16,062 nucleotides of DNA. It comes from Candidatus Heimdallarchaeota archaeon. GTDB lineage: Archaea > Asgardarchaeota > Heimdallarchaeia > Heimdallarchaeales > Heimdallarchaeaceae. The position numbers were made by a program, and so were the translations under genes. Shown here one piece after another: positions 4,844 to 13,954 of this stretch (its first letter is position 1; each line of letters opens with the position of its first letter). The stretch spans positions 1 through 16,062 of the forward strand of contig DAOVET010000053.1 of assembly GCA_030668825.1 (NCBI GenBank). The letters run 5' to 3'. The notes beneath the pieces are model-generated. The model ran no database searches. It saw nothing but the letters and a program-made list of their open reading frames with translations, and was not told the origin of the DNA.

Positions 4844-4911
4844 CAAGAAAAGGTTTTAGAATTCGCACCTAAAAACCTAAATACGTAAAAATCTTGGCGG
4901 CTAGATATAAG

Positions 4912-5679
4912 ATGTCAAGCAGTTTAAAAATAAAAGATATTTTCAAAGTAGATGGTTCTGGAATACCGTATCTAAAATTGGTTATATATGGACCTTCATT
5001 GTCAGGTAAAACAAGTATGTTAACAGTCTATAATGTTCTAAGGAAAGTTGAAGATCCTGAAACAATCTATTCTTCCTTAAAGAAGATAGATGACCCTAGT
5101 GGTAGAACAATCTTTTATGATCAAAGTACCTTTGAATTACCAAAAGGACAAGGCGTAAGTGTTCCAAAGCTAAGATACCAAGTTTGGACAGTAGCTGGTC
5201 AGAAAAGACATTATATTCAAAGAAAAGTTGTTCTTGAGGGTGCTGACGGATTGATATTTATGTTCGATCCCAGCAAAAATATGTGGGATGACAATGTAGA
5301 AAGCCTTGTTGAGCTCATAGCCCTTAAGGGAGATATCTTAGGAAAATCCTTGCCATTCTTAATCGTTCTGAATAAGATTGATCTTCCTCCTGAAGAGCGT
5401 ACTCCTACAGATAAGTTTCTTGATTTATTAATTGAAAAGAAACTTGCAGCTAATAAAGGAGAAGCCTACATGCGAGTAATTGAAACATCTTGTCTTCAAG
5501 CTAGAAATGAGTTGATGACTCTTTTAAGAAGTCCTGATATAAAATCAATGCTTGATGAATATGGACGTCTTAAAAAAGGAGCTAGACCTTTAAGTGTTCA
5601 AAAAACTGCTCAGCCAATTGAGCAATTAACACGAGAAATAATTATTCACCGAGTTAAATCTGCTAAAAGCGAATCTTAA
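4912..5679 (+). CDS. MglA-like small GTPase (Ras superfamily)
   Basis: G1 GPSLSGKT (4990-5013); G2 GRTIFYD, like MglA RTLFFD; G3 TVAGQ, like MglA TVPGQ rather than DxxG; RKVVLEGADGLIFMFD; G4 NKID; G5 ETSC. ATG 4912 is preferred over the TTG at 4894 given in the track. Confidence 0.9.
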   Translation: MSSSLKIKDIFKVDGSGIPYLKLVIYGPSLSGKTSMLTVYNVLRKVEDPETIYSSLKKIDDPSGRTIFYDQSTFELPKGQGVSVPKLRYQVWTVAGQKRHYIQRKVVLEGADGLIFMFDPSKNMWDDNVESLVELIALKGDILGKSLPFLIVLNKIDLPPEERTPTDKFLDLLIEKKLAANKGEAYMRVIETSCLQARNELMTLLRSPDIKSMLDEYGRLKKGARPLSVQKTAQPIEQLTREIIIHRVKSAKSES

Positions 5680-5682
5680 TAT

Positions 5683-5698
5683 TCTCATTTTTATTTTA
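5683..5698 (+). terminator. T-rich tract after the GTPase gene, possible archaeal terminator
   Basis: CTCATTTTTATTTTAT immediately follows the stop codon. Confidence 0.3.
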
Positions 5699-5711
5699 TG
5701 TTGATTAGAGA

Positions 5712-6389
5712 ATGGATAACTCAATTGTTACTATATTAAATCATATATTCAATCGCAATAAAGTAGATGTAACTAATCTTAAAGCAGTGGAAAAAGATAG
5801 ATGTATTCCCCTTCTTACTTCTTTGAATTATTCATTAGAAGAATTCTTCAATAAGGTTGATTTCACAGATGAAGAAAAGGGTCAAATTCTACTTTCTCTT
5901 CTTATGCAAGGTATTAGTGTGAAAAGCATACTCGAGTTTATTGATTGGAAAGGATTTGAGAATGTTATTACTGCTCTTTTTGATGAGTTAGGTTATTCAG
6001 TTCTTTCTAATTTTCGATTTAAGGACGAGTTCACAAAATATGAAATTGATGTTCTAGCATTCAAATATCCTTACTTATTTTTGATTGATTGCAAATATTA
6101 TAGGCATCCTTCGCCCTCTATCATGAAAGATGCAGCTGTTAAACAAAAGGAAAGAACAGAAGTACTTTATGAAATATTTCCCGTCCTTTCAGAAGAACTT
6201 ATTTCAAAACTTGCTTTACCATTGAAGAGGGAAGTGAAGCTTTATCCATTAATTCTCTCTTGGAGAGATCATAATATTCAGTTCTCTTCAGAAATTCCTA
6301 TAATTCCCTTTTACCAACTATCAGGCTTTCTTCAAGAAATTGATGAGTTTAGAGATGATTTATTCTACATTCCATTATATCTGAACTGA
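5712..6389 (+). CDS. PD-(D/E)XK restriction-endonuclease-fold protein (Mrr_cat/NERD-like)
   Basis: WKGFENVITALFDELGY...EIDVLA....LIDCK has the E...D...(D/E)xK catalytic arrangement, preceded by a helical N-terminal region of about 75 aa. Confidence 0.82.
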   Translation: MDNSIVTILNHIFNRNKVDVTNLKAVEKDRCIPLLTSLNYSLEEFFNKVDFTDEEKGQILLSLLMQGISVKSILEFIDWKGFENVITALFDELGYSVLSNFRFKDEFTKYEIDVLAFKYPYLFLIDCKYYRHPSPSIMKDAAVKQKERTEVLYEIFPVLSEELISKLALPLKREVKLYPLILSWRDHNIQFSSEIPIIPFYQLSGFLQEIDEFRDDLFYIPLYLN

Positions 6390-6426
6390 AAATCAATTTA
6401 ATGCCATGTTTTTAGTGAAAACAACT

Positions 6427-6443
6427 GAAAAACTCATATATAT
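6427..6443 (+). promoter_or_regulatory. Putative BRE + TATA (GAAAAACTCATATATAT) for the coiled-coil gene
   Basis: Purine-rich BRE-like run followed by ATATATAT, about 45 bp upstream of ATG 6488. Confidence 0.5.
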
Positions 6444-6487
6444 CGTTAACTTAATAATTTGTATAGGTAAGCTATGAGCTGAAATAA

Positions 6488-8122
6488 ATGGCTATAGAAA
6501 CGCAAAGTCCTTTCAGTGTTGTGCGCTCTCTCGTGAAGAAATTTCTAGGTGAAATGAGAGTTATTCGTACAACTTCAGAAGAACAAGTAAAAGCTAGAGC
6601 TGAAGAAATTAAAAGTAGTTCTTTAGCACCTGGAAAAGCACAATATTCTGTATCCGAAGTTGATAAAATCATTCGAAATTTCAAAGATAGTTATGTGGGT
6701 CTTTTACGAGATATCCATCTAATGGTTGTTACAGAAAGCACTAGTAAGATTCGTCAAGGTATAGAACAGGGATTTGTTGATGCGAAAATGATTACTCAAG
6801 AAATGCTTGGTGAGCTTGAGAAATTAAGGGTTGAAGCTGCAAAAATTCCTGGGTATGAAACGAAAATTCAAGATGATGCTTTGAAAATTGATGAATTAAA
6901 TGATCAAATTGGAAATCTTAAAGCTGAGACAATCTCTATACAAAATGAATTGACAGATATTCAGTCTGTTCTCAAAAGCAAAGACCAAGCTATTGGAGAA
7001 CTATCTGAAAAAGCAACTACAATGGGTGTGGATCAAACTATAATTGAAGCTAGAGACCAAGTGATAATGGACAAAGACAGAACCATTCATCAGTTATCTC
7101 TGGAAAAGAATAACCTCCAATCTGAATTTAATAGATTAAAAATCGAAAGAGATGCTATGTCTACACATGTTGAAGAAATGGAAGCACGTTTAAGATCTGT
7201 GTCTTCTGAAGCTTTATCCAAAGAGGATCAATTATTCGATGAACTACAAAAACAACTTGATAGCACAAGACAGACAGTTTTCAATCTTAGAAATCAAATT
7301 GCTGAACATGAAGATACTGTAAGAAACCAAAAAATCGATATTCAACAGAAATCCTCTCAAATTGATTCATTAAAGAAACAGATGGAAGATATTCAAGATC
7401 AAGCCGCTGATCAAGCTGAAGATTCAACACAGCTAGAGGAACTTAGAAAACAAATTCATCAAAGAGATGAGGATATGGAAAGACTTGCTGAAACTATGGT
7501 TGAACTCCAACAAGATATAAGTTCAAAGGAACAAGAACTACATGGTTTACAGACAACAACAGATGAAATGATGTTACAATTTGCTGAGAAGGAAGCTGAA
7601 ATTCAAGAAATTAGAGACATTGCTGAAAAAGCTACAGAAGAAAGAGAAAAGGTTGAAGAACAAATTTTAGAAAAACAAGATACTCTCGAGGATTTGAAAG
7701 CAAGGCTTGAAGAATCAACTAAAGAATTAGCAGACACAAAGAACACTTTACTCACTATGGAAAAGCAAGGAACAATTTCTTCTGAAGAGAAGTATCAGTA
7801 TGAACTCAATATACAAAAATTAAGAAAGAAAATTGACAATCTAAACAAAACTCTAAAGTCAGTTGAAGCTTTCCTAAATACAGATCCTAAATATAGAGTT
7901 CTATATTTGCTCAATGATTTCCAGAGACCTTTAGCTAAAGAAGAACTCTCTAAAATGCTTAATGTACCTGAGGAAGTTGCATCCAAGTATATCTTTGAAT
8001 TGGATTACTTTGGTTACATCAAACAGAATATCGATGCTGGAAAAACATTTATAGAATCAACCGCACTTTTAACACCTCCTCTTTCGTATGATGAAGAAGA
8101 AGAGGAAAAAGAATCCGAGTAA
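6488..8122 (+). CDS. Long coiled-coil protein with C-terminal winged helix and acidic tail (544 aa)
   Basis: About 350 aa of E/K/Q/L-rich, nearly proline-free heptad sequence. From about residue 466, DPKYRVLYLLNDFQRPLAKEELSKMLNVPEEVASKYIFELDYFGYIK has a wHTH pattern. Ends DEEEEEKESE. No Walker motifs and no TM segment. Confidence 0.85.
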   Translation: MAIETQSPFSVVRSLVKKFLGEMRVIRTTSEEQVKARAEEIKSSSLAPGKAQYSVSEVDKIIRNFKDSYVGLLRDIHLMVVTESTSKIRQGIEQGFVDAKMITQEMLGELEKLRVEAAKIPGYETKIQDDALKIDELNDQIGNLKAETISIQNELTDIQSVLKSKDQAIGELSEKATTMGVDQTIIEARDQVIMDKDRTIHQLSLEKNNLQSEFNRLKIERDAMSTHVEEMEARLRSVSSEALSKEDQLFDELQKQLDSTRQTVFNLRNQIAEHEDTVRNQKIDIQQKSSQIDSLKKQMEDIQDQAADQAEDSTQLEELRKQIHQRDEDMERLAETMVELQQDISSKEQELHGLQTTTDEMMLQFAEKEAEIQEIRDIAEKATEEREKVEEQILEKQDTLEDLKARLEESTKELADTKNTLLTMEKQGTISSEEKYQYELNIQKLRKKIDNLNKTLKSVEAFLNTDPKYRVLYLLNDFQRPLAKEELSKMLNVPEEVASKYIFELDYFGYIKQNIDAGKTFIESTALLTPPLSYDEEEEEKESE

Positions 8123-8198: not shown

Positions 8199-9422
8199 TT
8201 AAACCAAATTAGAAATACTTTCGAGCCTTACATGAGTTTCTTTTTGTTCAAAACTTTTCATTAAGTATGTATCAGATATGGTTTTAAGTTCCTCTCTCAA
8301 TCTGTAGAAAGCTTTTCTGTTCACTGTCTTTTTTATAACATATCGTCTTTCTTGAAGTTGCTTTAAATGGTGGGAGGCTGAAGTTTTTTGTATCCCTAAA
8401 TTATTAACAATGTCATCATATGTTATACCAAAATCATAAGCAGTAGACTTCATCGTAATTAGAGCAAGAATAAATGTTTGAGTATTATCATTAAGTGTCA
8501 CAAGATCAAAGAATTCCTTGTTCACGTCAATGGCTAGAAATGATGTAACATCATTAATTAGGGACAAAGAAGAGATATCTAGACCATTATAGAAACATTC
8601 TTCGCAAACTTTGGTGCAAATCTTTATGGCATTTAACAGACTTCCACTAGCTTTTTTTGAAATTGCTTGAAGTATTTCTTTGGTGAAAGGATTTAGAATT
8701 TGCTTATTTTTGCTTAATTTCAAACTTAAAATCTCAAATATTTCATCTTCATTTAAGGAATTAATTTGTTGACTTGGTACCATACTATTGATTAAATCAT
8801 AATCAGAAAACGCAAGCTGATTCTTTAACCGTGTCCATCCACCTTGAGAGAAAACAAATACTATGGGTGTATTCTGAAAATCTCTATCTAATGCGTATCT
8901 GAAGTCTTCAAAGAAATCAATTAAGAAATCAGCATGATCTATAATTAGTAGTGAAATGGTATCTCCTCCTGTATTCTGACTTCCTATGAAATTTCTAAAA
9001 TTCTGAATTGTTTTAGCGATAGAATATTGGTTGTCTTCAAATTCAACTAATTCTTTAGCATCTGAGAAAACAGTGTTTGTTAATTCTTTGTGAACTTTTA
9101 TCAAGTATTGATGAACTAAAGAAATTAATGTACTAACACCTGATTGACTTGGACCATACAAAACACCATCCATTATCGCGGTATCAGAATCTTTCTTCTT
9201 TTCCTTACAAGTGTCAAGAAAGCTATTGTGAACCTTGTTGATGTATTTAATAACCACTCTAAAACGAGATTCAATACATTCTTCATTCTGCAAATCTTCT
9301 ATAGATGTTTCAAGAAACGGGTTGGCATCAAAGCCAAAAGAGACAAAAGGATCTTGAGGAGTATAAGAACTGCCTTTACTCTCTTCTATTGCCTCCAAAG
9401 CTAGCTTCTCGAACTTATCCAT
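8199..9422 (-). CDS. AAA+-fold (Orc1/Cdc6- or ExeA-like) protein with degenerate ATPase motifs and C-terminal wHTH
   Basis: N-terminal FGFDANPF; Walker A position GPSQSGVST; Walker B position LLIIDHAD; lid region PFTKEILQAISKKASGSLLNAIKIC; wHTH GITYDDIVNNLGIQKTSASHHLKQLQERRYVIKKTVNRKAFYRL. ATG 9422 is preferred because the GTGGT at the track's GTG start (9431) looks like its SD. Confidence 0.82.
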   Translation of the reverse strand: MDKFEKLALEAIEESKGSSYTPQDPFVSFGFDANPFLETSIEDLQNEECIESRFRVVIKYINKVHNSFLDTCKEKKKDSDTAIMDGVLYGPSQSGVSTLISLVHQYLIKVHKELTNTVFSDAKELVEFEDNQYSIAKTIQNFRNFIGSQNTGGDTISLLIIDHADFLIDFFEDFRYALDRDFQNTPIVFVFSQGGWTRLKNQLAFSDYDLINSMVPSQQINSLNEDEIFEILSLKLSKNKQILNPFTKEILQAISKKASGSLLNAIKICTKVCEECFYNGLDISSLSLINDVTSFLAIDVNKEFFDLVTLNDNTQTFILALITMKSTAYDFGITYDDIVNNLGIQKTSASHHLKQLQERRYVIKKTVNRKAFYRLREELKTISDTYLMKSFEQKETHVRLESISNLV

Positions 9423-9450
9423 GATGACCACAAAATATTATCTAGACAAC

Positions 9451-9519
9451 ATCTGAATTGTTCGAATATTTGAACCTTTCGTATCATTCGAATTATTCGA
9501 ATTTTCCAATACTTTCCGA
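9451..9519. repeat. Tandem array of degenerate TTCGAA palindromic hexamers, 8-10 bp period
   Basis: Hexamers start at 9452 TCTGAA, 9461 TTCGAA, 9469 TTTGAA, 9478 TTCGTA, 9487 TTCGAA, 9496 TTCGAA, 9504 TTCCAA and 9514 TTCCGA. Includes the exact tandem (ATTCGAATT)x2 at 9486-9503. Confidence 0.75.
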
Positions 9520-9587
9520 CAATAATAACCGCTTATGAAATTTCTAGCAAGATGTGAGCAAGAAATATAAGTGCGTAACTGGAGAAA

Positions 9588-9603
9588 GAAAAAGGCTTAT
9601 AGG
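9588..9603 (+). promoter_or_regulatory. Putative BRE + TATA (GAAAAAGGCTTATAGG) for the ABC permease
   Basis: Purine-rich run then CTTATA about 25-30 bp upstream of ATG 9626, the usual spacing for a short-leader archaeal transcript. Confidence 0.45.
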
Positions 9604-9625
9604 TGTATATAATTGTCTGGAGCTA

Positions 9626-12600
9626 ATGAAGCAAGCGAATGACATACCTAGAAAATCACGACGTTACATTTTACAAAACTTCTTCATTTTAACTAAGACA
9701 TATTTCCGAAACTTATCCGAGGCAAAATTAAGTGGGAAACCTGATTTTCAGATCGTCATGGATATTATACTATGGGTGCTTTTGCCCGCTTTAGTTATAG
9801 TTCTCCCTATAATAGATGTTTTTCTTCTCTTGTTCTCTCCTGGTCTTCATCTCTTCAAACCACTCTTTAAAGCTGGTTGGAAATATGCACTTATTTCAGC
9901 AATAGGTGTAACTCTTGCAGTATCTGTGATAACACAATACGTATTCTTCATTTATTCTTATCAATTCCAGGCTTTTGATCTTTATTTGGCTGATGAACCT
10001 CGAAGGTTCATCCAAGTTGAATTAGCAGGTATACCAATTGAAGCATCATATCATCAATACAATAGCATTGACAATGTTGCTAAATATGCTATGGATTTCA
10101 TTGATATGACTCATCGTGTTCCACAAAGAGATTTGTTTTTTAAATTGGCATCGTTCACGCAATCACTTGACCCTACAACTAATCTCACGAGTTTCCCGAA
10201 TATGCAATTGTATGGATCCGATCTCAAATTGAGGCATTTCATTGAGAGTAATATTGCATACGGTCATGCACCTGAGAGTGATAATGAAGCTTTGGCTCTA
10301 ATGACTAGAGATTTTTATAACCATACAACTTTCAGAAATGGTTCAATAATTCCACTCTTTATTCAAATTGCTTTAGACAGAAGTGCTTCTCTTACAGTTC
10401 CTGGAGCTCAAACAACTGTCAATATTACGGGGATTGTCTTTTTGGACGACCTTCCTGTTTATGATGTGATAGAATCTACAATTGGTATACCCATTAAATA
10501 TGTGCTGGAATTAGAAGATAATTTAGCTTTGTTTACCCGATGGATACCTGCTGCAAATATAAACAATGATATTGCGCTAACATATAGTCAAGGAACTGTC
10601 TATGAAAATTTATTCTATGACGTATCATTAATTGATGCTTTTCAGATTGATAAAGAGATAACTATTCTCAAAACAATAGGAATCCAACTAAAAGAATGGT
10701 ATCAAACTTTAGGTGGTATTAATAATGCTCGAATTAGTTCTTATCTCGTCGATTTAATGGAAAGTTTTAAAGATGAATATGAATTATATCAAACTTTCAT
10801 GTTTTCTTTTCTTGCTCCTATTATGGCTTTAACTATTATATTGACAGTGTATGCTGCCAATCTGGTAAGAAAGAAAAGAGATAGACAATTAACAATCTTA
10901 ACTGAAAGAGGGAGTAACAGAGGAGAAATTGGTTCTTATCTAGCCTTAGAATCGCTAATTGTAGGAGGGGTTTCTTTGTTCGTGGGTATTTTTCTAGGAA
11001 CACCTATTGCATCCTTATTAACTAGAAGCTCAGGTTTCTTGAAATTTTCAAACACTACTTCTCCTTTGAGAATAGAGCTTTCTTCAGTAATTGTAGCAGT
11101 TTTAGGCAGTGTTGGAGCAATATTATTTATTCAACTTTTCAATACGATGACACTACTGAGAAAGAGAAGTATTGATGATTATGGTAAAGTAGAGAAGTCA
11201 CTACCTCGCTTCTATAAGTACTTTGTAGATATTGTTCTATTACTCTTAGCAGGTACAGTATGGATAGTTTATCAATTACCCATATTAACCTCCCATAAGG
11301 AATCTACTGCACGATATATAGGAATTCCTGCAACAATTTTAATGATTTTTGGTTTAATACTCTTATTCCAAAGATTTTTACCATTATTTTCTCGCTTATT
11401 AATTAAATTAACTACTAAATTGAAAATGGACATTTCTTCTCTCAGTGTAAGAGAGATAAGTAGATATCAGAAAAGTTTTGCTAGGTCTTCAATAATTCTC
11501 AGCTTATCATTTTCTCTCGTTGTCGCATCAATTGTTGTACCTTTCACTTATCAAAATTACAACCTGAATAGTGCATATTATGATGTTGGGTCAGATATTA
11601 TGATACGAGATTTTCCTGTAGATGATTATATACTAAAAGCAACAATAGATAATCTTACTTCTGTTGAATCTACTTCAATTGTTCGTTTAATCAACTTAGA
11701 TAATGTTCAAGGCGATCTTGCCTTAACATATTCGGTCTTAGTTGTTGACCCAATTAGTTATAATAAAACGGCATATTTCAGAGATGATTTTAGTAAATTT
11801 GAGTTTAATGAACTTATGAATGAGCTTAATACTTCTAATGATCTAGCTCCAAAATCTGTACTTGCTCAAGAGGACGAAATAGCTGCTTACAATATCAAAA
11901 CATGGGAGGATAAACCTATAACATATAGAGCTTATAATGAAAGCATGCGTCCTATACTCGGTACTCCATATTGGGATGAGAATATAACTCTTAAAATAAT
12001 GGACACTTTCAAGTACTGGCCAGTTCTTGTTAAAGACATATTAACTACTAATGTCCGATCACAGGTTTTTCACTTTGTAGCACCAATTAATTTCTTGAAC
12101 TACATTCAAATAGCTCCTTTCGATGTGATAAGTTATCTTTTTGTTAAAGTCGCTGATGGAGCAGTCATATCTGAGGTTGCTGATGAGATCTCTTCCTTTA
12201 GTACTGGATTCATATTTGATGTTGAAAGAGAAGTATTCGTAAGTCCCGATAGCCCCAGATCATCAATTCTTTACTCAGCTATTAACTCAACGCTCCTAAT
12301 GTCATTCACTATTAATGCAATAATTCTTGCGTTGTTCGCTTCCATTCAATTAATCGATAAATCAAAAGAAATTGCTACAATGAAAGCCATAGGTATTTCT
12401 TCTAGACAATTGATGAAGTATTATATCTCAGTGTATGTCTCTTTACTCGCTTTCACAACAATTGTAGGTCTAATTGTTGGGTATATCTCTTCAACGATGC
12501 TTATGGCAATATTAGCAATTAATAGAACAATTCCACCGTATTCAATGGCATTTCCAGTTGGGCAAATAGCATTAGTATTATCAATCCTGTTTGTAACTGC

Positions 12601-13560: not shown

Positions 13561-13656
13561 AAAAGAGAGCACAGTTATATTTTGTGGTAAGTAATATTCA
13601 AATTTCAATTACTGAAAATAAACTATATCAAACAAAGCAGATGAATCCAAATTAGT

Positions 13657-13722
13657 GATAAGAATGACTAAAAAAAAGCCACCCTCAAGGATAAGAATGA
13701 CTGAAAGAAAGCCACCCCCAAG
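13657..13722 (+). repeat. 33-bp tandem duplication (2 copies, 30/33 identical)
   Basis: GATAAGAATGACTAAAAAAAAGCCACCCTCAAG (13657-13689) and GATAAGAATGACTGAAAGAAAGCCACCCCCAAG (13690-13722). Confidence 0.95.
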
Positions 13723-13954
13723 TAAACTAAAACCAGACAGACTATTTGATCTAGTTGTTATAAAAATGATGACTGCTCTTGCAATGAGTGTAGCATTATT
13801 ATTTGGCGGGGGAACTGTCTTTATTTATGCTGTTGCAGGAAACATTGCTGTTGGTTCATATGACAGTTCAGTTGGGACAATATTCGGAGTTCACATAGCT
13901 TTACTGATGTTCTATTATTCTTTTGCACTGTTTAAGTATATTGTAAGTGATTAA
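13664..13954 (+). CDS. Small two-TM membrane protein with basic, Pro-rich N-terminus
   Basis: Two hydrophobic segments (MMTALAMSVALLFGGGTVFIYAVAG; VGTIFGVHIALLMFYYSFALF). ATG 13664 follows AGTGATA; second possible start at 13697. The stop is 1 nt before the next ATG. Confidence 0.75.
   Translation: MTKKKPPSRIRMTERKPPPSKLKPDRLFDLVVIKMMTALAMSVALLFGGGTVFIYAVAGNIAVGSYDSSVGTIFGVHIALLMFYYSFALFKYIVSD

Follow-up and report, generated by a model that had tools for sequence, protein, structure and literature searches.

A non-catalytic Orc1/Cdc6-fold protein and a conserved box array at its own promoter form a candidate self-regulating pair in a Heimdallarchaeota genome

The window, by which we mean the whole stretch of 16,062 nucleotides analysed from Candidatus Heimdallarchaeota archaeon, contains a gene for a protein of predicted Orc1/Cdc6 fold (hereafter the Orc-like gene). 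Its upstream region carries a periodic array of TTCGAA boxes and faces a divergent FtsX-like/ABC transporter operon (Table 1). The open frame of the Orc-like gene covers 8199..9431(-) and would yield 410 aa when read from its GTG. Because the orthologue alignments begin at MDKF, we placed the start at the ATG at position 9422, which gives 407 aa and bears out the intact ORF of the original prediction. The gene is present in single copy and was found in 28 of the 30 other genomes of its family, in which the protein is vertically kept. On the other side of the intergenic region, the permease most likely starts at ATG 9626 and not at GTG 9554, so that this region comprises 203 bp (9423-9625); alignments with the permease orthologues begin at residue 1 of the ATG-9626 protein. 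The element AAAGAAAAAGGCTTATAGGTG was seen as its reverse complement within the 260 nt upstream of the Orc-like gene in loci L001-L018 and L020. The locus had been described as a divergent promoter common to the Orc-like gene and the ABC transporter. The divergent arrangement is confirmed, whereas 'shared' overstates it, since the permease has a conserved BRE/TATA-like element of its own.

Table 1 Features of the Orc-like gene and its upstream region (positions refer to the window).
Feature	Position	Strand	Remarks
Orc1/Cdc6-fold protein gene	8199..9422	(-)	407 aa; stop codon 8199-8201; predicted AAA+ base, lid and C-terminal ArsR-like winged helix
SD-like GTGGT	9427..9431	(-)	4 nt before ATG; GGTGA or GTGAT in orthologues
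Second conserved element AGATGTTGTCTAGATAAT	9437..9454	(-)	between TATA-like box and SD-like site
69-bp ultra-conserved non-coding core	9437..9505	(-)	boxes 1-6, TATA-like box and second element
Box 6, TTCAGA, degenerate	9452..9457	(-)	ends 29 nt before ATG
Box 5, TTCGAA	9461..9466	(-)	downstream of TATA-like element
TATA-like TTCAAATA	9467..9474	(-)	in phase with the boxes, array position 4; putative by position and consensus
Box 3, TACGAA on gene strand	9478..9483	(-)	9 bp from box 2, directly upstream of TATA-like hexamer
Box 2, TTCGAA	9487..9492	(-)	9 bp from box 1
Box 1 (distal), TTCGAA	9496..9501	(-)	TTCGAA in 28/29 family loci; TTTGAA in L026
Distal motif TTGTCGGAA (TTGTCGnAA)	9514..9522	(-)	one or two copies upstream of array in family loci
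Context: conserved AAAGAAAAAGGCTTATAGGTG	9585..9605	(+)	outside the module; probably BRE/TATA of divergent FtsX-like permease (ATG 9626)

The 407-aa protein was modelled by AlphaFold2 (pLDDT 80.4, pTM 0.77). A Foldseek search with this model returned archaeal Cdc6/Orc1 as best match (2qby_A, E 1.8e-9), and VIA-align yielded Z-scores of 16.0 for 2qby_A and 15.2 for 1w5t_C, the latter with 317 residues aligned within model residues 28-399. As judged from the model, the protein is predicted to adopt the three-domain fold of Orc1/Cdc6, i.e. an AAA+ base, a lid and, at the C-terminus, a winged helix. TnsC and MuB were the next best folds (Z 12.8-13.8 by VIA-align), with TnsC within ~2 Z units. By hhalign, the protein aligned with the Orc1/Cdc6 proteins of its own genome (prob 57.5%, E 1e-4, 283 collinear columns), and this alignment provided the register in which we read the catalytic positions. 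Where Walker A GxxGxGK[ST], Walker B hhhhDE and a sensor-2 Arg (GDAR) are expected of Orc1/Cdc6, the protein displays GPSQSGVS (G90-PSQS-G95-V96-S97) lacking the Lys, IIDH (IID162-H163) lacking the Glu, and L263 (GSLLN at the aligned site), respectively. All three residues are substituted in 29 of 29 family orthologues. The fold match, the hhalign register and the orthologues therefore agree with the originally proposed AAA+ plus winged-helix architecture with substituted catalytic residues; the missing Walker A Lys is no proof that nucleotide binding is gone. The ISM-like helix, whose counterpart contacts DNA in Orc1, has a conserved QNFRN (residues 140-144). Cys269, Cys273 and Cys276 on the lid helix are near-invariant. 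We discarded this CxxxCxxC as an Fe-S motif, as its first Cys is a Thr in G006 and G007 and hence not invariant. Prediction of a homodimer from two copies scored 0.01 against a mark of 0.42, which says nothing about self-association either way.

A TIGR02928 search of the whole genome gave no match at the Orc-like locus at E <= 0.001; three genes elsewhere (C91, C78 and C18) scored above the cut-off and represent true Orc1/Cdc6. Pfam detected no AAA, Cdc6_C or AAA_22 (PF13401) match in the protein, and its sole signal was HTH_5 (ArsR-type) at residues 340-367 with 19.1 bits, below the cut-off of 22. The NCBIfam model NF033788 matched with 25.4 bits, again below its cut-off (55). These sub-threshold but consistent ArsR/SmtB-type matches span residues 333-378, and the family profile matches MJ223 and SmtB chains, with 1ku9 at E 2e-4. 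The C-terminal winged helix thus appears ArsR-like, as far as sub-threshold scores can tell. A distant match, P0055, is an AAA_22 protein (81.8 bits), and one source labels the cluster of another relative, P0054, 'predicted ATPase ExeA'. The ESM Atlas contained only look-alike archaeal AAA_22/HTH clusters, often with AAA_22, which we take as leads and not as evidence. Repeating the profile search in a word-indexed protein collection gave nothing beyond the first search. PADLOC returned only weak Csa3/CARF-type matches to the winged helix (E 1.2e-6) and hence no call of a defence system. We found no description of the protein family or of a TTCGAA array at an Asgard promoter in those parts of the literature that were accessible; the supplementary and FigShare tables of replication-gene homologues belonging to PMC12680538 might list the protein among Cdc6-like hits. 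In our best reading, the gene product is a non-catalytic AAA+ protein that belongs to the initiator (Orc1/Cdc6-like) clade and ends in an ArsR-type winged helix.

Upstream of the gene, six hexamers with a spacing of 8-9 bp occupy positions 9452-9501. Three of them are exact TTCGAA (9461, 9487 and 9496), and TRF reports a repeat with a period of 9 and 5.6 copies (9455-9503), which confirms the periodic TTCGAA array that had been noted before the ATG. Boxes 1 and 2 constitute a perfect palindrome, ATTCGAAT-N-ATTCGAAT. Box 3 presumably sits at the BRE position, as judged from the standard archaeal promoter layout. The TATA-like hexamers in the window's genus (TTCAAA) are weak versions of TTTAAA, and distant orthologues display TTTAAA, TTTTAA or TTTATA at this site. 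In the window's genus, all 23 loci (L001-L022 and L025) have an equivalent of box 5 (TTCGA or TACGA) downstream of the TATA-like element. The element AGATGTTGTCTAGATAAT, which probably spans the transcription start, can be traced from the window's genus to G006/G007, the deepest orthologues; it is family-specific and missing from relatives in other families. The SD-like site before the ATG suggests a leadered mRNA. Searching positions 9300-9750 against Rfam gave no match at E <= 1.

Within the family, the array shows a constant architecture. All 29 loci carry three boxes at a strict 9-bp period (score 15-18/18), followed by a 3-nt spacer and then the TATA-like hexamer. In 12 loci of the same genus (L007-L018) the 69-bp core is 87-96% identical, including the spacers between the boxes, at a protein identity of 66-82%; four-fold synonymous sites in these loci are 33-48% identical, i.e. 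saturated. The promoter core shows higher conservation than the protein under its control, which is unusual for a promoter. The original prediction had named orthologues lacking the array, or an array tracking with the ABC operon, as outcomes that would speak against it, and the comparison favours the pairing of gene and array.

We then asked how often the array occurs in the genome. The total of TTCGAA in the window is not unusual (7 copies versus 4.5 expected); 3 of the 7 fall within 41 bp. The 2.76-Mb genome contains 898 copies, and ~0.08 triplets within 41 bp would be expected. The sequence TTCGAANNNTTCGAA occurs once in the 2.76-Mb genome, at this promoter, and the three-box pattern with up to 2 mismatches is likewise confined to this locus genome-wide. 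Of 10,528 genome windows of 260 nt, three reach 15/18 at 9/9 spacing, one being this locus. The genome scan for periodic TTCGAA arrays that had been proposed as a check thus found the three-box array once. Across 31 family genomes, a pattern match with a TAA/TTA spacer always lies at this gene, and other matches amount to ~1 per genome, similar to a reversed-pattern control. A wider regulon was rejected: two-box sites (<=1 mismatch) number 18 in the genome versus 12-44 for five control patterns and are mostly coding, so that no second site was found above controls genome-wide. Extra exact two-box matches in G307 (8 versus 1 in the control) were also set aside, as the six outside the locus are all coding, with TTCGAA encoding Phe-Glu. 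No arrays were found near the true orc1/cdc6 genes.

The array extends beyond the family. Relatives in other Asgard families (21-30% protein identity where measured) were scored on their only gene or, in tandem pairs, on the first one: 14 of 25 carry an array of at least 15/18 (f33 1/1, f29 1/1, f28 3/5, f32 1/2, f5 7/10, f19 1/1) and 11 lack a clear one; second genes of tandem pairs have none (0/6). Most of these relatives keep an intact Walker A GK[ST]. Their six extended loci have no neighbouring genes in common with the window, and the 5'UTR varies between 34 and 171 nt across nine array-bearing loci. In six of these nine (L051, L053, L054b, L055b, L056b and L061) the third box either is itself a TATA-like hexamer or is immediately followed by one. 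The arrays of other families show evident boxes upstream only, apart from one extra downstream box in L061. Linkage of the array to the gene and to the TATA-like element is phylum-deep. The candidate operator is kept at the gene's own promoter across orthologues (29/29 in the family, 14/25 in other families) and is unique in the genome. The junction of boxes and TATA-like element, the 69-bp core, the array-gene linkage and the arrays in other families are new with respect to the original prediction. As a side observation, the f5 family has TTCGAT boxes and an N replacing the S before the [YH]H pair of the recognition helix, and deep orthologues with a KTTISYHL helix tolerate a TTTGAA box; covariation of helix and box was dropped, as the independent events are too few to count.

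Among known systems, Orc1-2 of Saccharolobus islandicus likewise employs a three-domain Orc-like build for transcription control and not for initiation. According to two reports, this non-initiator Orc1/Cdc6 is a regulator of the DNA-damage response that binds the hexanucleotide ANTTTC on its own promoter (PMC9738581, PMC12490963). It keeps Walker A and B, is turned on when it binds ATP and off by hydrolysis, and binds DNA poorly as a Walker A mutant (PMC9738581). Orc1-2 controls many promoters, whereas the genome of the 407-aa protein offers a single triple-box site; the 407-aa protein is not recognised by the Orc1/Cdc6 sequence model, has lost the Lys, Glu and Arg and carries an ArsR-like wing. 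Orc1/Cdc6 initiators on ORB elements (PDB 2qby, 2v1u, 1w5t, 1fnn) are the best structural matches over base, lid and winged helix, and in both cases the binding site, here a candidate, adjoins the gene. However, identity to these initiators is 12-15%, TIGR02928 and Cdc6_C do not match, the catalytic residues are lost, and short palindromic 6-mers with a 9-bp period replace the long ORB elements flanking an unwinding region. ArsR/SmtB repressors provide the sole sequence-level domain signal, all of it below curated cut-offs. Many of their members autoregulate from operators over their own promoters; known ones are small dimers of ~100-120 aa, whereas here the wing forms the tail of a 407-aa AAA+-like protein. 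Of the AAA_22/ExeA-like, TnsC and MuB proteins, initiator-clade AAA+ proteins that coat or mark DNA, TnsC and MuB are the next best folds, and the N-terminal FGFxxNPF motif resembles the ExeA N-terminus. Unlike this group, the 407-aa protein has no AAA_22 match and no transposon or secretion link, and is single copy. DnaA is likewise an AAA+ protein of the initiator clade; its DNA-binding domains occupy closely spaced, phased short boxes, including those at its own promoter, its AAA+ modules touch one another, and its gene is autoregulated. It is bacterial, requires ATP for the oligomer and uses 9-mer boxes at ~11-bp spacing at many sites per genome. Resemblance to heat-shock factor, in which a winged-helix domain reads contiguous TTC/GAA arrays of typically three units, is superficial: the units of heat-shock elements are 2 nt apart throughout (5-bp register, 10-bp period), whereas the gaps of the Heimdall array alternate between 0 and 3 nt at a 9-bp period.

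Our preferred reading, which we consider probable on balance, is that the protein represses its own gene by binding to the BRE/TATA region of its promoter. The winged helix would read the TTCGAA boxes set 9 bp apart, filling the best conserved boxes 1 and 2 first. Occupancy would next spread to box 3, on the BRE position and abutting the TATA-like box, and in the window's genus would go on to boxes 5 and 6, which lie between the TATA-like box and the start site. This would exclude TFB/TBP or RNA polymerase, and the gene would shut itself off by negative feedback. The degenerate AAA+ module might act as an oligomerisation or scaffold surface, and we propose that no ATP cycle operates in this family, as the P-loop Lys is gone. 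We infer the protein as binder, the sign of the regulation, cooperativity and ATP independence, and its own promoter as the candidate and only multi-box target in the genome. Of the three roles in the original prediction, the autoregulator fits best, given the TATA-locked array in every family locus, its presence in other families and its uniqueness in the genome; a regulator of the ABC operon and an ORC-like scaffold found no support. As the genome-unique boxes are also kept by distant Asgard relatives, an ancient self-regulating switch is most likely. Saccharolobus Orc1-2, with its hexanucleotide on its own promoter, sets a precedent. Several points count against self-repression: a 46-kDa protein on every box would be cramped at a 9-bp spacing, this spacing is also off the 10.5-bp helical repeat, a purely self-regulating protein has no evident purpose, and a clear array is missing from 11 of 25 distant relatives. 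Moreover, conservation of the spacers exceeds the needs of a hexamer operator.

The sign of the regulation could also be positive, since boxes 1-2 lie upstream of the BRE position, the usual place of an activator. Occupancy of boxes 1-3 by the same protein would then recruit TFB/TBP, resulting in self-activation with positive feedback or a bistable switch, while the downstream boxes would cap the level. This placement holds in 29/29 family loci, deep orthologues and other-family arrays (L061 excepted) show evident boxes upstream only, upstream sites usually activate in archaea, and the weak TTCAAA hexamers of the window's genus would fit a need for an activator. However, box 3 overlaps the BRE position itself and, in the window's genus, two further boxes lie between the TATA-like element and the start; we regard self-activation as fairly unlikely. 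Still less probable is that another factor reads the array, or that it merely represents an unusual core-promoter architecture, with the adjacent protein not being the binder. The linkage of array and protein is solely genomic, and the conserved spacers together with AGATGTTGTCTAGATAAT show that more than one signal is packed there. Against this, the gene product carries a winged helix, and the array, which the genome contains only once, accompanies the gene in at least six Asgard families, without common neighbours in the loci examined; a separate factor dedicated to one promoter would be less economical.

That the divergent FtsX-like/ABC transporter operon is the main target of a local regulator, one of the roles initially suggested, appears very improbable. 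The divergent layout with gaps of ~170-290 bp is present in 7 of 12 extended family loci, including the window's close relatives. In the other five (G005, G006, G007, G010 and G011) other genes intervene and the distance to the operon ranges from 1.5 kb to more than 9 kb, with a non-divergent arrangement in G005, yet the array remains within ~100 bp of the ATG of the Orc-like gene. Furthermore, an FtsX homologue is missing from all six extended loci of other families (in one of them an ABC ATPase match that looks unrelated lies ~7 kb off, at 31% identity), and the permease's own BRE/TATA-like element lies ~84 bp from box 1. Array and protein might instead mark a unique chromosomal landmark, i.e. 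a secondary origin, partition or organising site comparable to Orc1/ORB, DnaA/oriC or ParB/parS. The Orc1/Cdc6-like fold, the one site per genome adjoining its gene, the extreme conservation of 69 bp and an SMC/Rad50-like coiled-coil protein as a conserved neighbour in the family are in line with such a site. We nevertheless consider it improbable, for the following reasons. In the closed relative G006, sampled as 80 pieces of 20 kb each (52% of its genome), the cumulative GC-skew minimum at 1.96-2.0 Mb coincides with the best Orc1/Cdc6 gene at 1.987 Mb; the Orc-like locus lies at 1.279 Mb in a flat skew zone, 0.7 Mb from the true orc1/cdc6 gene; skew alone could miss a minor origin. This, together with the three true Orc1/Cdc6 genes elsewhere in the window's genome, also speaks against the ORC-like scaffold or origin of the original prediction. 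In addition, what stays constant across families is a 3-nt junction with the TATA-like box and not an AT-rich unwinding region, the intergenic region is short, and the true orc1/cdc6 genes are free of nearby arrays. A joint reading, which we deem unlikely, holds that an ancient Asgard AAA+/winged-helix protein of the initiator clade forms a phased DnaA/ORC-style oligomer on three TATA-welded boxes at one chromosomal place, going beyond feedback as a replication or cell-cycle dosage timer or as a landmark, and that the Heimdall family made an ATP-switched version nucleotide-independent, a turn that may be likened to eukaryotic ORC keeping inactive subunits.

Eukaryotes have no closer known relatives than the Asgard archaea, whose gene regulation is almost uncharted and of which few members have been cultured. 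At this locus, sequence alone suffices to name a protein along with its probable DNA site. This site is short, occurs once in the genome and is retained in several Asgard families, which makes for an unusually clean and directly testable pair, and a 69-bp core that is more conserved than its protein calls for an explanation. Moreover, an Orc1/Cdc6-shaped protein has long been kept without its ATPase residues while sister families retain the P-loop. This constitutes a natural experiment on the role of an AAA+ module once ATP is no longer cycled, and is relevant to the origin of inactive ORC subunits.

The minus-strand ORF is uninterrupted and, because its orthologues begin at MDKF in the alignment, we assign the start to the ATG at 9422 and a product of 407 aa, in agreement with the intact ORF of the original prediction. 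Pfam detected in this Orc-like protein only an ArsR-type helix-turn-helix (residues 340-367), whose 19.1 bits lie below the cut-off of 22 bits. The AlphaFold2 model was confident (pLDDT 80.4, pTM 0.77; 24 homologues in the alignment) and matched archaeal Cdc6/Orc1 best, followed by eukaryotic Orc1/Cdc6 and then by TnsC and MuB (2qby_A, E 1.8e-9 in Foldseek and Z 16.0 in VIA-align; 1w5t_C, Z 15.2 in VIA-align with 317 aligned residues over 28-399; TnsC, Z 13.8 in VIA-align). Profile-profile alignment to the genome's own true Orc1/Cdc6 yielded 283 collinear columns (probability 57.5%, E 1e-4) and placed GPSQSGVS, IDHAD and GSLLN in register with Walker A (GTTGTGKT), Walker B (LDEVD) and sensor-2 (GDARR), respectively. 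The catalytic-motif losses are common to 29/29 orthologues of the family, the Heimdallarchaeaceae. The predicted AAA+ plus wHTH architecture with substituted catalytic residues is thus correct at the level of the fold. As judged by sequence criteria, the protein is not an Orc1/Cdc6; a TIGR02928 scan of the genome gave no match at its locus and three genes above cut-off elsewhere (C91, C78 and C18). Conservation of the AAA+-like, non-catalytic pocket and of QNFRN on an ISM-like helix suggests that this module remains functional, and it may contact DNA as its Orc1 counterpart does.

Two further sites are near-invariant: a His at the position of the Walker B Glu (residue 163; Asn in genome G004), and a CxxxCxxC motif of the lid helix (Cys269/Cys273/Cys276), which comes directly after the sensor-2 position and has Thr in place of its first Cys in G006/G007. 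Residue 163 or Cys269-Cys276 might form a metal or redox site. In one genome, G010, the full-length gene is followed by a 130-aa ORF (L030, G010:C97:216356-216733) that amounts to just the winged-helix domain, with 57% identity to residues 283-406.

The periodic TTCGAA array proposed upstream of the gene is borne out: TRF reports a 9-bp period with 5.6 copies, and the proximal end lies 29 nt before the ATG. The total of TTCGAA in the window is unremarkable (7 copies, 4.5 expected), while from its 898 genomic copies about 0.08 triplets within 41 bp, as present here, would be expected genome-wide. TTCGAANNNTTCGAA occurs once in the 2.76-Mb genome, at the array, and the three-box pattern with up to 2 mismatches was found at no other genomic site. 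For a second target, two-box sites with at most 1 mismatch numbered 18 in the genome, most of them coding, compared with 12-44 for controls.

Features of the Orc-like locus and its surroundings
Feature	Coordinates	Strand	Description
Small Ras/Roc/Arf-like GTPase	4894-5679		83-93% identity across genera
NERD/restriction-endonuclease-like protein	5712-6389		
SMC/Rad50-like coiled-coil protein	6488-8122		544 aa
Family-linked gene trio	4894-8122		GTPase, NERD-like and coiled-coil genes
ORF of the Orc-like gene	8199..9431	-	
AGATGTTGTCTAGATAAT	9437-9454		Conserved, non-coding, family-specific; between TATA-like box and SD-like site
Promoter core	9437-9505		69 bp
Box array	9501 down to 9452	-	TTCGAA-taa-TTCGAA-tga-TACGAA-agg-TTCAAA-ta-TTCGAA-caa-TTCAGA (gene's strand)
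TTGTCGnAA	9514-9522		Conserved, non-coding, family-specific; one or two copies upstream of array
FtsX-like permease, start	9554 or 9626		Listed from GTG 9554; orthologue alignments begin at ATG 9626
AAAGAAAAAGGCTTATAGGTG	9585-9605		BRE/TATA-like, conserved, apparently the permease's; placed for leaderless start at ATG 9626
33-bp tandem repeat	13657-13722		Two copies, 90% match, at start of the ORF below
ORF	13655-13954		No family match

The Orc-like gene is single-copy and its family narrow, comprising MAGs named by their sources as Heimdall-group (46 clusters in a collection of 5.8 billion proteins; 13 representatives in one of 1.84 billion). It is present in 28 of the 30 other genomes of the taxonomic family and absent from 16/16 genomes in the order's three other families; one of the two hit-less family genomes, G020, carries the array at a contig end. 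Upstream regions were extracted at the 29 orthologous loci, which span 36-98% protein identity. Without exception they carry three boxes with a strict 9-bp period (scores of 15-18 of 18), followed after 3 nt by a TATA-like hexamer (TTCAAA, TTTTAA, TTTAAA and TTTATA among them). As background, a score of 15 of 18 at this spacing was reached by 3 of the genome's 10,528 windows of 260 nt, the Orc-like locus being one of them. In 12 same-genus loci (L007-L018), the promoter core is 87-96% identical to that of the window, the proteins are 66-82% identical and four-fold synonymous sites are saturated at 33-48% identity. The promoter is conserved better than the gene itself.

Gene order is conserved in the genus (MMPL, SIS, small GTPase, NERD, coiled-coil protein, the reversed Orc-like gene, FtsX-like permease, ABC ATPase); in G006/G007, the GTPase-NERD-coiled-coil block is inverted and lies some 6.7 kb away from it. 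The divergent promoter thought to be shared with the ABC transporter holds as to arrangement in 7/12 extended loci, where the permease is the divergent neighbour across about 170-290 bp, but the permease has a BRE/TATA-like element of its own. In the other five (G005, G006, G007, G010, G011), intervening genes place the permease 1.5 kb to >9 kb away, and in G005 the FtsX/ABC operon is not divergent from the Orc-like gene. All five keep the array within about 100 bp of the Orc-like ATG, and no array was seen at the permease in the extended family loci. Because the permease has its own element and the array stays when the operon moves, the array belongs to the Orc-like gene, and synteny argues strongly against the suggested role as regulator of the ABC operon.

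Weak matches among the representatives were proteins of the same length with 21-25% identity, in clusters with members from MAGs named Hod-, Wukong- and Prometheo-archaeal by their sources; one source labels a cluster of distant relatives 'ExeA'. Common to the relatives are an N-terminal FGFxxNPF motif and the ArsR-like wing, and in most of them the Walker A GK[ST] is intact. A profile search placed the superfamily in 57/400 Asgard genomes across 12 families. Outside the family, upstream regions were examined for 25 genes that stand alone or lead a tandem pair; with 8-10-bp spacing allowed, 14 carry an array of at least 15 of 18, against a background of 28/10,528 windows (0.27%); three more loci, which have no usable start codon, were left out. 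By family, arrays occur in f33 (1/1), f29 (1/1), f28 (3/5), f32 (1/2), f5 (7/10, boxes TTCGAT) and, weakly, f19 (1/1), and in 0/1 each of f27, f8, f7, f31 and f6. In nine array-bearing loci of one non-family set, the ATG lies 34 to 171 nt away; in six of the nine, the third box either is itself a TATA-like hexamer or is immediately followed by one (e.g. TTCGAA-ata-TTTAAAT). Six extended non-family loci share no neighbours with the window except one 31%-identical ABC ATPase match about 7 kb away; synteny thus differs, leaving the gene, three boxes and TATA-like box as constants. Tandem paralogues follow the gene in two other Asgard families (L054-L056 in G304, G307 and G308; L080 in G065; L085 in G071). 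In such pairs only the first gene has the array upstream (second genes, 0/6), which suggests a two-subunit form there. The more distant P0056-type subfamily (L197 in G301; L215 in G397:C93) has 9-bp-spaced TTTGAA/TTTTAA hexamers 13-22 nt before the ATG, whose scores of 13-14 of 18 are on their own not above background.

The simplest reading is that the winged helix of the Orc-like protein reads the boxes and controls its own promoter. Counting from the distal end, nucleation would take place at the better conserved boxes 1-2, subunits would contact one another through the AAA+-like module, and binding at box 3, on the BRE position, would exclude TFB/TBP or polymerase. In the window's genus, two additional boxes sit downstream of the TATA-like element and ahead of the probable start. 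Negative feedback, which we would place slightly above even, is favoured because box 3 sits on the BRE position and these two boxes precede the probable start. Against self-repression, a period of 9 bp is tight and does not match the helical repeat, spacer conservation exceeds the needs of a hexamer operator, and boxes 1-2 sit at the usual position of an activator. That the same protein instead activates its promoter seems unlikely to us. For either form of self-regulation, the purpose of a self-only regulator is not obvious, no second site having been found in the genome. Binding of the boxes by a different factor would be less economical, and we consider it rather improbable.

The Orc fold and a single genomic site adjoining the gene would also fit an origin or other chromosomal landmark, but we give this very little credence. 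In G006, a relative with a closed genome, cumulative GC skew sampled in 80 stretches of 20 kb reaches its minimum at 1.96-2.0 Mb, with the best Orc1/Cdc6 gene at 1.987 Mb, whereas the Orc-like locus is at 1.279 Mb in a flat zone; moreover, the conserved junction leads to a TATA-like box and not to an unwinding element. GC skew leaves room for a minor origin there.

The array resembles the phased boxes of DnaA and the TTC/GAA arrays of HSF, but its gaps of 0 and 3 nt do not match the 2-nt gaps of the HSE register. The wing is similar to ArsR/SmtB repressors, at sub-threshold scores. Among characterised proteins, Saccharolobus Orc1-2 comes closest: this Orc1/Cdc6 does not act as an initiator and binds a hexanucleotide within the promoter of its own gene. 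It keeps both Walker motifs, controls many genes and depends on binding as well as hydrolysis of ATP (PMC9738581; PMC12490963). Full-text literature searches, which covered matching passages of an Asgard replisome survey (PMC12680538), yielded no account of the Orc-like family or the array.

Taken together, the observation is real and its support far stronger than the original prediction could know. Judging from sequence, the protein-site pair is conserved across several Asgard families. It would belong to a kind already known, as an autoregulated winged-helix factor or an Orc-like regulator. In the Heimdall family, it joins an ultra-conserved promoter core to a protein without ATPase residues.
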